DNA of 64,000 nt. It comes from a virus. Taxonomy: Duplodnaviria; Caudoviricetes. The position numbers were made by a program, and so were the translations under genes. The notes under the pieces were generated by a model. The model was given only the letters and a program-made list of their open reading frames with translations, was not told the origin of the DNA and did not search any database. The stretch's first letter is position 1. Every line of letters begins with the position of its first letter. The DNA lies in IMG/VR virus record IMGVR_UViG_3300042258_000071, positions 172,444 to 236,443 of that record, one strand, 5' to 3'. Of the stretch, positions 38,578 through 59,393 are shown one piece after another.

Positions 38578-38720
38578 ATGTGTTAACCCTTTACATAAGG
38601 TTTAAGGTACTTAAGAATACCCGGAAAACTGCATACTATGTTTTAAGTATGTCTGAGACGTCTGATGAGGTCTTTATGATTATGAGTTACTTGAAAACCA
38701 TCAAAATAGGGTCATAAAAA

Positions 38721-40328: not shown

Positions 40329-40437
40329 AGTTACCCCTAGAACAGAGAAGAGATCCCCAATTAAGGGGATCTCTTCTCTTATGCCCATTTCCAGATAGTA
40401 TGATCATGACTTTTACATCATACAGGGATATTTTACC

Positions 40438-54185: not shown

Positions 54186-54221
54186 AAGATAAGAGGAGGG
54201 CAAATGCCCTCCTCTTATCTT
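54186..54221. terminator. bidirectional terminator-like hairpin
   Basis: 17-bp stem between convergent genes. Confidence 0.75.
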
Positions 54222-55377
54222 AATTTATGTTCACCCAAGAAGCTATATTTTTAACTTCAGATTCTACTTGTGACCTTAATGTACTATTATGAATATTTGA
54301 CCAAAACCGACGACTTAAGACAAGTGATATGTCTCGTTGAAATTCCCTATAGAAAGTTGTGTATCCAACAAACTCTGTATTTAAACGATAAATTAGATAG
54401 CATAATTTTAACCAAGGAAGATCTCGTAAATATTCAACCCATTCATTTTGACGGATGTCTGTTACAGTTGTTAAGACAGATAAAGATTGGACATACTCAG
54501 GAATATAACCCTTGGATAATGGAAGAGAGGCCATGATCTTTTCAGGTACCGTACTTCCTTGTGAGGATCGCTTGTATAAATCATACACCTCCTCAATCAT
54601 ACGGGGGTATTGCGTCCCAATAAATCCATAGATATTGTGATACATAGAGTCTATGACATGCTGTCTTCTATCTTTGAATATATCAGGTGTTTCAAGAAGT
54701 TGAATGTAGCGATTCCTCAACCAAATATTTTGAAGATCTTCTAATAAAGGAAAGAGAACATATTGATGAAGATACTCTTGAATCGACATGCTCTGATCTG
54801 GATCTCGTTGAGATACAAAATTACAATACTGCATGACGAGTGCTAAAGTATCCACTGCAAATATAGCACGTGATGGGTAGTCATTTTTAAATTTAATCAC
54901 ATCTTGAAATGTGTGATACGTCAATTCATTACTGTCAATGTCTAACAATCTTAAAGCACGAACATCCTGCCATTCCCTCCAAGGTCTGTTAAACGGGAGG
55001 TATTTAAGATAGTCTTCCATGTGAACAGGGATAACGATTTCAACAGTGGCATTTACATTTTTATGAATAAACAGTTCTTCTCGAATAACACCCGTTGTCA
55101 CAGGGTCAAAGATGCGATCTAAATCATTATGAATAGCTAACAAACACTTAGAGTATCGATCATAATCATTAGTAAAATTAAGGATACCACTTCTAAGTGC
55201 AAATGCAATGACATGCCGTAATAAGACAACCCCCTGACTTTCTTTTCCAGGAGCTGTACGATATCGTCCAAGGGTGTCAATTTGTCTGGTATTAAGAGAC
55301 TGGATATAATTTTGAGTTTTAGGGAGAGATAAAGGTGATGAAGGTTTGAAATAAATCCTCAAAGCCCTATCGAACAT
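54220..55377 (-). CDS. conserved core protein divergent from chimallin (phiKZ gp52-like)
   Basis: 385 aa; position and orientation relative to chmA. Confidence 0.6.
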   Translation of the reverse strand: MFDRALRIYFKPSSPLSLPKTQNYIQSLNTRQIDTLGRYRTAPGKESQGVVLLRHVIAFALRSGILNFTNDYDRYSKCLLAIHNDLDRIFDPVTTGVIREELFIHKNVNATVEIVIPVHMEDYLKYLPFNRPWREWQDVRALRLLDIDSNELTYHTFQDVIKFKNDYPSRAIFAVDTLALVMQYCNFVSQRDPDQSMSIQEYLHQYVLFPLLEDLQNIWLRNRYIQLLETPDIFKDRRQHVIDSMYHNIYGFIGTQYPRMIEEVYDLYKRSSQGSTVPEKIMASLPLSKGYIPEYVQSLSVLTTVTDIRQNEWVEYLRDLPWLKLCYLIYRLNTEFVGYTTFYREFQRDISLVLSRRFWSNIHNSTLRSQVESEVKNIASWVNIN

Positions 55378-55635
55378 GATTGCTATATTCCTTTAATTAA
55401 AATATTCTCATTAAAAATCATAAGATGAGGACAGGATTGTTTCCCTTTCTTTATTTTTTAATTATTACATATAACTATTATTATATAGAGCACCCCAAGT
55501 CATTATTGACTTGTTAAGTGTATAGAGGATATTGTGTCTCTATCCACAAACTTTGAAAACAATCAACTAAATATATTAATCCAATAGTAAGTGATGTAAT
55601 AGGATGAGTAAAATTCTTCATCCAACCTTAAGCTA

Positions 55636-55650
55636 TACATTACTACGTTG
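55636..55650 (+). promoter_or_regulatory. early promoter of the chimallin gene (TACATTAC-N5-TG)
   Basis: Motif variant about 120 nt upstream of ATG 55772. Confidence 0.7.
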
Positions 55651-55771
55651 GATTAGGTGTTCTTGTGCAAGGCATTTTGTCTAGACATCTGTGAAGAAAG
55701 ACTACGGGAACATTGCACAACACCTCACAGAAGTCTCCCATCAAACCAACAAATAAAAGGTATACCTACTC

Positions 55772-57394
55772 ATGAGTATCAGTGAAACGGGCGGCCAGCC
55801 CAACGCAAAAACCACCTCAACCAGCGATCAAGCTTATGATCGTACTACCACGGCATCTGACCATGTTCCAGGATCGACGGAAGCGCGTCGCGATGGATTT
55901 GGCCTTCGTAATGTCCTGTCGGCTCTGTCTGTCATGAGTCGCCTAGGAGGACAAGCTGGTGACTACCTTAAAAAGGTAGAAGCTGAGATCGAGTCTTATG
56001 GAAAGAATTATGGAGTCAAGACTCGCCCGCTCGACATGCCGTCTGGTGCAGTGGCCTTTATCTTGGATCGCACAGCTATCGTGCTTATGTTCGAAGAACA
56101 ACTTAGCGCGCCAACTCGCCCTGCTAATGCGCCGAAGTCCGACAACATTGCATTGGCAGCAGAAGCTCTTCATGCGATCGATCCTGCCTTGGAATTTCTG
56201 GAAGGAATCATTGTTAGCCGTGCGGATTATGATTACTATCCGCAGATGGCAACACACATTCTAACAACGCTGGCCTACTCGAACCGTAACCGGTCGCAGG
56301 CCATGGGCATGACTGTCCAGGCAATGATCGAGAACACCAAATACACGGTGGTTCGCGATGTCAATGCAGCCCGGGATTTTACACGGTCCCTCTATCCTCA
56401 CAAAATGCTTCCCTATCACAACACTGGTTGTGTTGTTATGATGAAAAACCCTACCCAAAACACGCGAAATGATGGGCTTAGCCAACAAGGCACCCCCATC
56501 ATGGCAATTTTGGGATATACAAATTTCCATGAACATCAAGATCCCACTTTTGCAAACTCTCGCTTTGCACCAGTCTTTCACACGTCGCTGATCATTTCTC
56601 CGATCCAGCATCCGGCAATGGCAGCATTGGCGATTGCAGTTGTTGCATCGGAATTCTCGCGTAATCGTGGATGGCTTGATCCGTATCAAGACTTCACTTC
56701 TGGTGTGAACATCGGGAATCTCATCAACGATTCTAAGGGGAATCTTTACAACATCCCCAATCGAAACGATTTCAATACCTTCATGAATACCTACATTTCT
56801 CAAAAGCCTGCCATCATTGCGTTTGATGTTCAGGAAGGTACAGCACGACTGCCCGTGCTGCACAATCTGATCTCTCAGCATGGCGGTCTTCATTTTAATC
56901 GTCTCTTCGAATCTTTCTTTGAAGTGAAAGCTCCTCAGGTGCGCCCGCATCGTTCGGTGTATGAAGAATTCCATGGCTACTATGGTAGCCCGGAAGACCC
57001 GAAGGATACGCGCGAATTGAATTATCTGAAAATTGTTTCTCAAAAGGGTGGTAAGAATGCCGATCAACTCCGGGTGCTGATGCAGCCGGATAATGATCCG
57101 GTGCAGCGGTCACTGGAATTGCAGCGTCTGGGGGCCGATAGCATTCGGTTCTTGTATCGCACCAATATTGCGATTTTGGAACCTGAATTCATTAACACGA
57201 TCGAGGCGATCTTCCAGCAGTATCGGGTATCGATCCATAGCAACGATACAGCTGGGAATTCTATCATTGGATATAATTCTATCAGCGATATCGCTGATAC
57301 GTTGGCGGCTGGTTCTGGGATTGTCCAGCACATGTCTCCTTCCCAGGGGACGTTCTATGGGCAGTCTCCGTATTCTTCTGGGATTTCATCATAA
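55772..57394 (+). CDS. chmA: probable chimallin (phage nuclear shell protein)
   Basis: Directly upstream of the nvRNAP beta'-like gene (phiKZ gp54-gp55 synteny); own early promoter and terminator; strongest codon bias; disordered N- and C-terminal arms; PhuZ and a ChmC candidate present. The call rests mainly on synteny. Confidence 0.65.
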   Translation: MSISETGGQPNAKTTSTSDQAYDRTTTASDHVPGSTEARRDGFGLRNVLSALSVMSRLGGQAGDYLKKVEAEIESYGKNYGVKTRPLDMPSGAVAFILDRTAIVLMFEEQLSAPTRPANAPKSDNIALAAEALHAIDPALEFLEGIIVSRADYDYYPQMATHILTTLAYSNRNRSQAMGMTVQAMIENTKYTVVRDVNAARDFTRSLYPHKMLPYHNTGCVVMMKNPTQNTRNDGLSQQGTPIMAILGYTNFHEHQDPTFANSRFAPVFHTSLIISPIQHPAMAALAIAVVASEFSRNRGWLDPYQDFTSGVNIGNLINDSKGNLYNIPNRNDFNTFMNTYISQKPAIIAFDVQEGTARLPVLHNLISQHGGLHFNRLFESFFEVKAPQVRPHRSVYEEFHGYYGSPEDPKDTRELNYLKIVSQKGGKNADQLRVLMQPDNDPVQRSLELQRLGADSIRFLYRTNIAILEPEFINTIEAIFQQYRVSIHSNDTAGNSIIGYNSISDIADTLAAGSGIVQHMSPSQGTFYGQSPYSSGISS

Positions 57395-57531: not shown

Positions 57532-59393
57532 GTGGGTATAGATGTTGTTACACCCCTTCCCCTCAATCCTCCTAAAGATGAACATGTGAATTATCGCATC
57601 TTACGTCTGGTAAATTTTGATAAACGTTTTCATAATGCACCTAACAAACTTCTCTTATCACACATCGACTTCACAGATCCTAATTACGCCGAGAGTCTTA
57701 ACAAAGAACTCTACTCTCATGGGGGTGAGTTAAATTTCATTGCATCATGTGACTGCGGTGAGACGACAGGTAATATCAACATTGGTGCAACATGTCGTGC
57801 GTGTAAAACTGAAGTTAAATCTCAAATAGAAACAGGTCAAGGGGATATCCCTCACACGACATGGATCGCCTTCCCAGACAGTGTCCCTGGCGTCATGCAT
57901 CCTATCTTTTACAACATTCTTTCTAAATGGCTATCCTGTGGTCAGGGTAAGCATAATAATTATTTAGATATCATCTTAGATCCTAAAAGACCTCTCCCTA
58001 ATGAACTCCAGGGGGTTGTGGATGGTCGAGGATTTGAATATCTGTATAATAATTTTGATCGTTTGATGGAATATTTCTATGTTCACCATATTAAACAAAA
58101 CAAACTAAAGTCTCTTGCAAAAGCAAAACATATTAAACGTTTCGTTGATAGGTATCGCCATCTTGCATTTGTAAAACATTGCCCTGTATTGTCTTCAGCG
58201 CTCCATCCTGTTACAGCGCCTGATAACTCGGGTAAACGGAAATATGCAGATAAAGGATCTCAACACATCCTAGAAACTGCACACATCTTATCTTACTTGA
58301 GGTTCTACCCAACCAAGTCTCGTCGTGCTGGTGAGTTCGATCATAAATGTATGAATGCGTATCGAGCTTATATCACCTATCTTGAAGATATTGCAAAAGA
58401 TCGACTATCTTCTAAGAAATCACTTCTAAGAAAACATCTCTTTGGGATGAGATTTCACTGGTCTTTCCGAGCACTTATTGTACCGCGTGTTGGAGTCCAT
58501 CGGTATAACGAACTAGAACTCCCATGGGTGGTCGCTGTTAATCTTCTTAGAGTGCACATCATCGGACGTCTGGTTAATAAACATGGGTATGCCCCTCATA
58601 TTGCAATTAATAAGCAGATGATGGCACGTGCCATGTATGATCCAGATATCGATCAAATTATGAATGATTTCATTAAGGAGAGTCCGTGGCCAGGACTTCC
58701 GGTACTTCTAGGGCGCAATCCGTCGATTAACATTAAGTGATAAAAGTTTTCACTTAATTAGTCCGCTTTAGATTGAAAGATCTTAAGTGAACCTTCCTTA
58801 ATTGCTGGAAACTCCTTAGAGCTAAACATACTACAACGCAACACGAAAGTGTCATCGTGAAAGTTTGAAAAATGTTTAGATTGGGCAACCAGCAGCGAAG
58901 CGCCTTATACATGTCGTTATGACAGTGATATGGTGAACGTTCAACGATCAAGGCTTTGTCCGCCTGTAGAGACCAAGGGGTCTCGAAATAGGAAGCATCT
59001 AAGAGTCCTTAAGGATTTAGGATGAAGATATGATCTAGTCTATGGTGAAAGTCATAGCTGCAGGTTATGCTGCGCATGGGGGAGATACCGAACCTTCATG
59101 GAATATTACGTCAAAAAGGCGCCCTTCAACTCTTTTTCGTTCCAAAAATTAAAACGTCAGTATACGACAGAACCATCGGGTTATCTCCTCTCACGCTTAA
59201 GAGGTTCAATGGGGACTACGATGGGGATGAATTACACGGTCTTCTTATTCTTGAAAATGACATGGTTAGAAAGCTTTTAAAAATACATCCTTCTCAAATG
59301 TACACATCCACCAATGGCGTTGGGATTGGAACGGATATTACTCTCCCACATCAGACGTCTATTGCTTGGAATTCATTCTTAGATCGCGTATAA
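57532..59393 (+). CDS. non-virion RNA polymerase beta'-like subunit (phiKZ gp55-like); exons 57532-58727 and 59111-59393, 492 aa spliced
   Basis: Zn ribbon CDCG...CRAC, KSLLRKHLFG.R..SFRALI, spliced RNPSIQKGALQ, catalytic FNGDYDGD in exon 2. Confidence 0.9.
58728..59110 (+). mobile_element. group I intron (IA2-like), ORF-less, 383 nt
   Basis: Exon U58727 pairs with G in IGS TTAGTC; P3 CTTCCT/AGGAAG; P4 TGCTGG/CCAGCA; P7 GATCA/TGATC within R (GTTCAACGATCA) and S (AAGATATGATC); P7.1/P7.2; P9 GAAA loop; terminal G59110; removal restores the frame. Confidence 0.9.

Follow-up and report, generated by a model that had tools for sequence, protein, structure and literature searches.

Crossing stems and palindromes in the mRNA leader of a predicted chimallin gene from a phiKZ-like phage

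Chimallin is needed fast and in large amounts for building the phage nucleus, and how its message is controlled is the question raised by the locus described here. The window, that is, the whole stretch of DNA analysed, comes from an uncultured giant phage and comprises the final 64 kb (64,000 nt) of a 236,443-bp virus record carrying terminal repeats. Between the predicted transcript start of its chimallin gene (chmA) and the ribosome-binding site (RBS), a first-pass annotation had recognized two long interleaved complementarities and had proposed a pseudoknot or a two-state switch acting on the message. Our searches of the open literature found nothing on control of the chmA message or on a chmA leader element, and assembly of the phage nucleus would gain its first cis-regulatory RNA should the leader prove to control translation or message stability. 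The analysis supports a real structured leader, makes a switch for access to the Shine–Dalgarno (SD) sequence plausible, and leaves the pseudoknot unproven.

The chimallin gene and its early promoter

We assign the open reading frame at 55772–57394 to chimallin by predicted fold and gene order, the two lines on which its identity rests since sequence searches gave no match. Its product had zero sequence matches in Pfam, PHROG or the PDB (phmmer, and a profile of 79 sequences against the PDB) and none among GenBank phages by tblastn. An exhaustive HMMER search retrieved 330 homologues of ~530 aa, the nearest 30% identical, and an AlphaFold (AF2) model built on these homologues reached a pLDDT of 83.8. 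When this model was used for a fold search of the PDB, ranks 1–9 were all chimallins (PhiPA3 PhuN, Goslar and 201phi2-1; E 1e-15 to 1e-12, TM 0.54–0.61), and the next match had an E-value of 1e-2. The gene that follows chmA, at 57532–58740, encodes an RNA polymerase (nvRNAP) beta-like subunit (phrog_2987, E 4e-66), and the same order is found in phiKZ, PhiPA3, Noxifer, LucasX, RAY and Goslar. Fold and neighbour together bear out the earlier call of a probable chimallin. On the other side of chmA, a divergent gene of 385–408 aa (phrog_3938; minus strand, 54220–55377 in this window) and an intergenic region of 320–390 nt (here 55378–55771) are kept in the relatives L005, L007, L008, L011 and L017, and a divergent gene of ~390 aa lies 5' of chmA in most of the relatives compared.

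The elements that define the message are as follows:

55619–55651, plus strand: phiKZ-type early (virion RNA polymerase) promoter, matrix score 20.8 bits
55650–55771, plus strand: predicted 5' untranslated leader of the chmA mRNA, ~122 nt, its start placed from the promoter
55772–57394, plus strand: chmA, chimallin nuclear-shell protein of 540 aa, by predicted fold and gene order

The promoter core TATACATTAC occupies 55634–55643, and TGG at 55649–55651 replaces the consensus TGA. Scoring used a 33-nt matrix, CA..(N)..TATATATTACTAnnnTGA, built from exact copies of TATATTAC in non-coding DNA, a motif present in 19 upstream regions against 1.5 expected. About 32 genome sites form a clear top cluster of matrix scores, and the chmA site, at rank 29, falls inside it. 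The early-promoter core is also found 5' of chmA in phiKZ, 201phi2-1, RAY and Goslar, the phiKZ upstream region having TATATTACTAAATTGA and reading TTATATTACTAAATTGAATC, and most of the uncultured relatives keep the motif 78–215 nt 5' of chmA, with variant cores in L015 and L016. The early motif of jumbo phages is conserved, AT-rich and ~10 nt long, is centred near −10 and recurs 5' of early operons (PMC7598289). From this position and from the conserved G of the TGA, we place the predicted transcript start at ~55649–55651, near G55650, the base named in the first-pass annotation; it fits a 32-member promoter family whose core is identical to that of the phiKZ early promoter.

With the start so set by the early promoter, the leader would measure ~122 nt, compared with a median of 56 nt, by crude gene calls, over the 32 early promoters of the genome. 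A search of Rfam with the leader returned no family. The leader contains no intrinsic terminator or attenuator, having neither a terminator-like hairpin nor a U-run, and a short attenuated RNA is therefore not expected. The chmA gene of phiKZ is transcribed from two starts, a primary one of the early class and a secondary one of the middle class (PMC8244752). The late-type motif ATAGTATG has no exact match in the chmA intergenic region of our phage, where the closest sequence is ATAGTAAG, ~40 nt upstream of the early-promoter core. Genome-wide, ATAGTATG(A) is a second intergenic motif, with 33 of its 63 copies in the 12% of the DNA that is non-coding (examples in the window lie at 38633–38640 and 40395–40402), and it resembles the TATG start motif of phiKZ late promoters.

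Crossing stems, nested folds and the expectation by chance

The leader and the start of the gene contain the following elements, all on the plus strand:

55655–55670, plus strand: stem 1, 5' arm AGGUGU-ucu-UGUGCAA, within the predicted leader
55678–55687, plus strand: perfect 10-nt palindrome TGTCTAGACA at +29, overlapping the start of the stem 2 5' arm
55683–55694, plus strand: stem 2, 5' arm AGACAUCUGUGA, inside the loop of stem 1
55713–55725, plus strand: stem 1, 3' arm UUGCACAACACCU, including UGCA at −58 from the AUG
55725–55736, plus strand: stem 2, 3' arm UCACAGAAGUCU, adjoining the stem 1 3' arm without a linker
55737–55756, plus strand: C/A-rich spacer CCCAUCAAACCAACAAAUAA, unpaired in all predicted folds
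55758–55767, plus strand: perfect 10-nt palindrome AGGTATACCT over the SD sequence (AAAGG, 55756–55760), present once in the genome
55767–55778, plus strand: perfect 12-nt palindrome TACTCATGAGTA centred on the start codon

Stem 1 joins AGGTGT(TCT)TGTGCAA (55655–55660 and 55664–55670) to TTGCACAACACCT (55713–55725) through 13 Watson–Crick pairs with a 3-nt bulge, and stem 2 joins AGACATCTGTGA (55683–55694) to TCACAGAAGTCT (55725–55736) through 11 pairs with a single A55687/A55732 mismatch. Re-checked against the sequence, every coordinate and base originally given for these stems is exact. Read 5' to 3', the arms follow one another as stem 1 5', stem 2 5', stem 1 3', stem 2 3', which makes the helices cross: the loop of stem 1 pairs with a segment downstream of it, the topology of a pseudoknot. 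Both 3' arms form one unbroken 24-nt block in which T55725 is common to the two stems. The GTCT/AGAC sequences of the small hairpin that had been noted beside them likewise occur, GTCTAGAC being the core of the palindrome at 55678–55687, and another AGAC lies at 55699–55702. The arms are unique within the genome and so represent no dispersed motif, and a search for trans-pairing partners of the leader elsewhere in the genome gave only chance-level matches of 10–15 nt. One candidate strand-biased motif, AGGTGTTC (23 copies against 2), was rejected, its bias being spurious because of 129-bp tandem repeats inside a coding region unrelated to the leader. These repeats lie outside the window, at 26.3–29.9 kb of the genome, in at least 13 copies and three tandem runs.

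Whether both stems could form at the same time is a question of geometry. Because the 3' arms abut without a linker, the full pseudoknot is sterically doubtful: the loop crossing the 13-bp stem 1 would have a length of 0 nt, T55725 would have to serve both stems, and, in a stacking of the helices along the unbroken 3' strand, a first loop of 12 nt would be left to bridge ~25 bp. On this geometric argument, a fully formed two-stem pseudoknot is unlikely. A partial version that combines the inner 7 bp of stem 1 with stem 2 has loops of 12, 18 and 5 nt and is sterically feasible, at the price of opening the outer 6 bp of stem 1; the helix-only energies are −20.5 kcal/mol for stem 1, −13.3 kcal/mol for its inner 7 bp and −18.8 kcal/mol for stem 2. 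Using a crude pseudoknot-allowing energy, in which one crossing helix is added to a nested fold at a penalty of 9 kcal/mol and sterics are ignored, we obtained −27.6 kcal/mol compared with −22.8 kcal/mol for the nested fold, a value reached by 3.2% of shuffles (z −1.36). A true pseudoknot with both stems present simultaneously, serving stability, translational control or protein recognition as a compact element at the 5' end, would agree with the crossing order, with the specific partner of each arm and with the fact that stem 2 does not compete for the bases of a stem 1 formed earlier in transcription. Against it stand the steric objections, to which the energy heuristic is blind, and a lack of conservation, the relatives described below having no crossing pairs; we consider it quite unlikely.

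The nested folds point to another arrangement. With six codons included, the nested minimum-energy fold (−24.3 kcal/mol) combines stem 2 with an 11-bp helix between 55654–55664 and 55757–55768 (helix-only −13.5 kcal/mol), which covers the SD region, and the best fold containing stem 1 is nearly isoenergetic with it at −22.8 kcal/mol. Stem 2 has a pair probability of ~0.8 in the nested ensemble, compared with 0.18 for stem 1. If stem 1 is imposed on the fold, the SD palindrome becomes more accessible, its probability of being unpaired increasing to 0.52 from the 0.19 of the free nested ensemble. Two partners are thus available to the 5' arm AGGUGUUCUU, ACACCU/UUGCACA and the SD region, and a concrete two-state model follows. 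The idea of a two-state switch stays plausible in altered form: it is the 5' arm that shifts to the SD region and not stem 1 that alternates with stem 2.

In this model, the early chimallin message made from the phiKZ-type virion-polymerase promoter would have a leader of ~122 nt containing three perfect palindromes and a crossing pair of long helices. Pairing of the 5' arm with ACACCU/UUGCACA would give stem 1 and leave the SD palindrome open, and its pairing with the SD region AAGG-UAUACCU, with stem 2 formed, would close the site. Stem 1 may form first during transcription, in which case the open state would be favoured. We tentatively prefer this reading, a cis-acting structured leader that sets RBS accessibility and probably message lifetime, and give it somewhat less than an even chance of being right. 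The analysis shows the sequence, the identity of the gene, the family to which its promoter belongs and how rare the helix pair is; for this particular leader, we infer the transcript start, the helices that actually form and any effect on translation or stability.

The competing account holds that the stems are complementary by chance and have no selected role, the length of the leader being due to the palindromes, to the spacing of the promoter and to a structure-free landing zone for ribosomes. The nested minimum-energy fold of the leader agrees with it, showing no extra stability relative to shuffles (z = −0.12; repeat, −0.22). Taken as a lone hairpin, stem 1 has −13.6 kcal/mol, and 2.4% of dinucleotide shuffles and 11% of natural 122-nt genome windows contain a single helix as good as this. 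The crossing pair (−24.1 kcal/mol), judged by a statistic devised after the pair had been seen, had no match among 500 shuffles and 18 among 1938 natural windows (0.93%). When the 5'-terminal 122 nt of each of the 32 early transcripts are compared, it comes first by a wide margin, ahead of a next best of −16.8 kcal/mol. As ~1% of natural windows match it, around ten such places are expected in 64 kb, and the site was picked by its reader from that whole stretch. Chance also accords with relatives that have no crossing stems; it sits less well with the result from shuffles, with the lead over the other early 5' regions, with the fit of every arm, far better to its own partner than to an arm of the other stem, and with the generally structured chmA leaders of the clade. 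The crossing stems are rarer than chance, but as evidence for function they are suggestive, not decisive, and we regard a purely fortuitous origin as a serious though rather unlikely explanation.

Leaders of related phages and their palindromes

Closer relatives were sought by a protein word search and in IMG/VR, JGI metagenomes and GenBank phages, and none was found; three other contigs of the same phage are 100% identical over 3–7.6 kb and offer no population variation. The comparison covered 11 homologue loci, whose chimallins are roughly 22–30% identical. The chmA leaders of this uncultured clade measure ~60–240 nt and most are structured, seven of nine relatives' leaders folding more stably than shuffles (z −1.2 to −3.5). 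Given these folds and lengths, selection for structure in chmA leaders is plausible. Compensatory changes, which had been suggested as a check on the stems, would have to be read from an alignment of leaders, and no leader aligns with that of our phage. Crossing pairs reach significance in none of nine relatives' leaders (p 0.075 to 1). An SD complement lies close by in 8 of 12 clade leaders, which favours the switch; pairing of the 5' end with the SD sequence occurs in only one of nine relatives (L011), which counts against it.

The chmA leaders of phiKZ, PhiPA3, 201phi2-1, RAY, Goslar and Noxifer are 58–69 nt long, and those of phiKZ, 201phi2-1, RAY and Goslar are built from a 5'-end hairpin and a palindromic mini-hairpin, with an A-rich spacer before the SD sequence. 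C/A-rich or A-rich spacers resembling that at 55737–55756 precede the SD sequence in other chmA leaders as well. A likeness by eye between our leader and those of phiKZ and 201phi2-1 (UUAGGU..UUCUUG..CAAG) was discarded, having no significance in local alignment with a shuffle control. Among 15 chmA leaders aligned in this way, the lowest uncorrected p was 0.038, for L015, and phiKZ gave 0.096.

Two further observations concern the relatives. First, a hairpin with a UGCA tetraloop, often CUGCAG, lies 43–58 nt 5' of chmA in L005, L006, L010, L011, L012/L013 and L015, that is, in 6 of 12 relatives; its stems vary between phages and include G-U pairs, and from these sequences the uncultured chimallin clade seems to have kept an RNA hairpin at this place. 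We rejected the UGCA at −58 of our leader as the same element, as it has no local hairpin and the genome holds no intergenic UGCA hairpin. Second, PhiPA3 (L019, NC_028999) has an in-frame ATG 75 nt (25 codons) 5' of the annotated gp53 start, preceded by a good SD sequence (AAAGGAAAAAGAC-ATG). The protein read from it begins MSIRD, like the MIRD of 201phi2-1. The RefSeq start of gp53 is probably too far downstream.

The palindromes recur more widely than the stems. Three perfect, loop-free palindromes of at least 10 nt within 141 nt are found in 0.0004 of shuffles and in 0.0012 of natural windows. Palindromes are enriched across 19 chmA leaders, 10 of them individually at p < 0.05, with a Fisher combined p of 4e-11. 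A perfect palindrome of at least 8 nt covers the SD sequence in 6 of 12 clade leaders against a background of 13%. The six are the leader of this window, with AGGTATACCT, and those of L005, L006, L007, L008 and L011, and the further sequences are CCTCTAGAGG, CCTCATGAGG, CTCTCGAGAG, TCCATGGA and CTCGCGAG. The leaders of phiKZ (L018, 15612–15621), PhiPA3 (L019) and 201phi2-1 (L020) have CTTGATCAAG in common, ~28–30 nt 5' of the chmA start when the likely start is used for PhiPA3. This sequence occurs once in the phiKZ genome, once in that of PhiPA3 and three times in 201phi2-1, and no mention of it was found in the literature searched. The palindrome of the Goslar leader is AATGACGTCATT. Known phages have a single palindrome roughly 20–50 nt 5' of the AUG; in our leader the palindromes lie on the SD sequence, on the AUG and at +29. 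We regard palindrome enrichment in chmA leaders as a more robust and more general lead than the stems, and one directly testable in phiKZ, PhiPA3 and Goslar, for which genetics and antisense tools exist.

Palindromes and inverted repeats may also act in the DNA, binding a dimeric phage regulator as an operator or roadblock 3' of the early promoter. All 24 of the 24 stem pairs are Watson–Crick, for which reason strand and DNA or RNA level are indistinguishable from the pairs themselves, and the dense perfect palindromes of this leader, their enrichment across the 19 leaders and the invariance of CTTGATCAAG in three Pseudomonas phages, with a single copy in two of the genomes, are what such an element would predict. 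The arms of stems 1 and 2, however, have no common half-site and interleave in a manner unlike an operator layout, and two palindromes coincide exactly with RNA-level signals, the SD sequence and the AUG. In L006, L010 and L011, moreover, stems containing G-U pairs extend the palindromic cores on the sense strand only, and RNA is therefore favoured. A DNA-level element is, in our judgement, quite unlikely.

At the far end of the RNA readings lies a dedicated riboregulator, in which a partial pseudoknot and an SD-palindrome switch would time or localize shell synthesis, or in which chmA messages would pair with one another through their palindromes. In the former case the message might, for example, stay closed until it has left the early infection vesicle. 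In both versions, the palindrome hallmark of chimalliviruses would be the conserved core. We consider this reading improbable.

Candidate regulators and comparison with known systems

The first-pass annotation had named ChmA itself and ChmC as possible regulators. We know of no nucleic-acid binding by ChmA. It is the protein of the shell lattice (PMC11077065), its predicted fold here matches only chimallins, and autoregulation by ChmA finds no support. In PhiPA3, eCLIP of ChmC showed that phage mRNAs are bound with little or no specificity and no motif, with peaks 25–30 nt downstream of start codons (PMC11077065); specific binding of ChmC to this leader is accordingly unsupported too. Antisense oligomers directed at the SD sequence or AUG of phiKZ chmA block ChmA synthesis (PMC12571901).

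The precedent offered for the leader was T4 gene 32, and here the layout agrees while the nature of the regulator does not. In the gene 32 leader, a compact 5' pseudoknot with groove-fitting loops precedes an unstructured region extending into the RBS, and the regulator is the gene's own cooperative single-strand-binding protein. The chmA leader likewise belongs to an abundant early phage gene and places a candidate 5' pseudoknot before an unpaired A/C-rich stretch (55737–55756) leading to the RBS. In contrast to gene 32, stem 1 is 13 bp long and leaves a crossing loop of zero length, and the product of the gene is a shell-lattice protein rather than a single-strand-binding one.

Leaders that sequester the RBS by alternative pairings, such as those of the T4 early lysozyme (e) and soc transcripts and the anti-SD/anti-anti-SD switches, provide a second comparison. 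Here, too, an SD-like 5' arm, AGGUGU, can pair with the anti-SD-like ACACCU or with the SD region. Unlike those switches, the chmA leader has no known trigger, be it a ligand, a protein, temperature or a second promoter; its two states differ little in energy and do not exceed chance in stability, and there is no sign of a second start within the leader.

The E. coli ompA leader, with its 5'-terminal stabilizing stem-loop, resembles ours as a long structured leader before a very highly expressed gene. The chmA leaders of phiKZ, 201phi2-1, RAY and Goslar come closer to this type, with a hairpin at +1 in the manner of 5'-terminal stabilizing stem-loops, whereas in our phage stem 1 begins at about +6 and +2 is reached solely by the long-range pairing with the SD region. 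In phiKZ, structured RNAs are derived from 5' UTRs and premature terminators (PMC10914365), and the present leader is comparable to them as a long structured 5' region behind an early promoter of a phiKZ-like phage. Among the chmA leaders compared, the interleaved long stems are peculiar to this phage.
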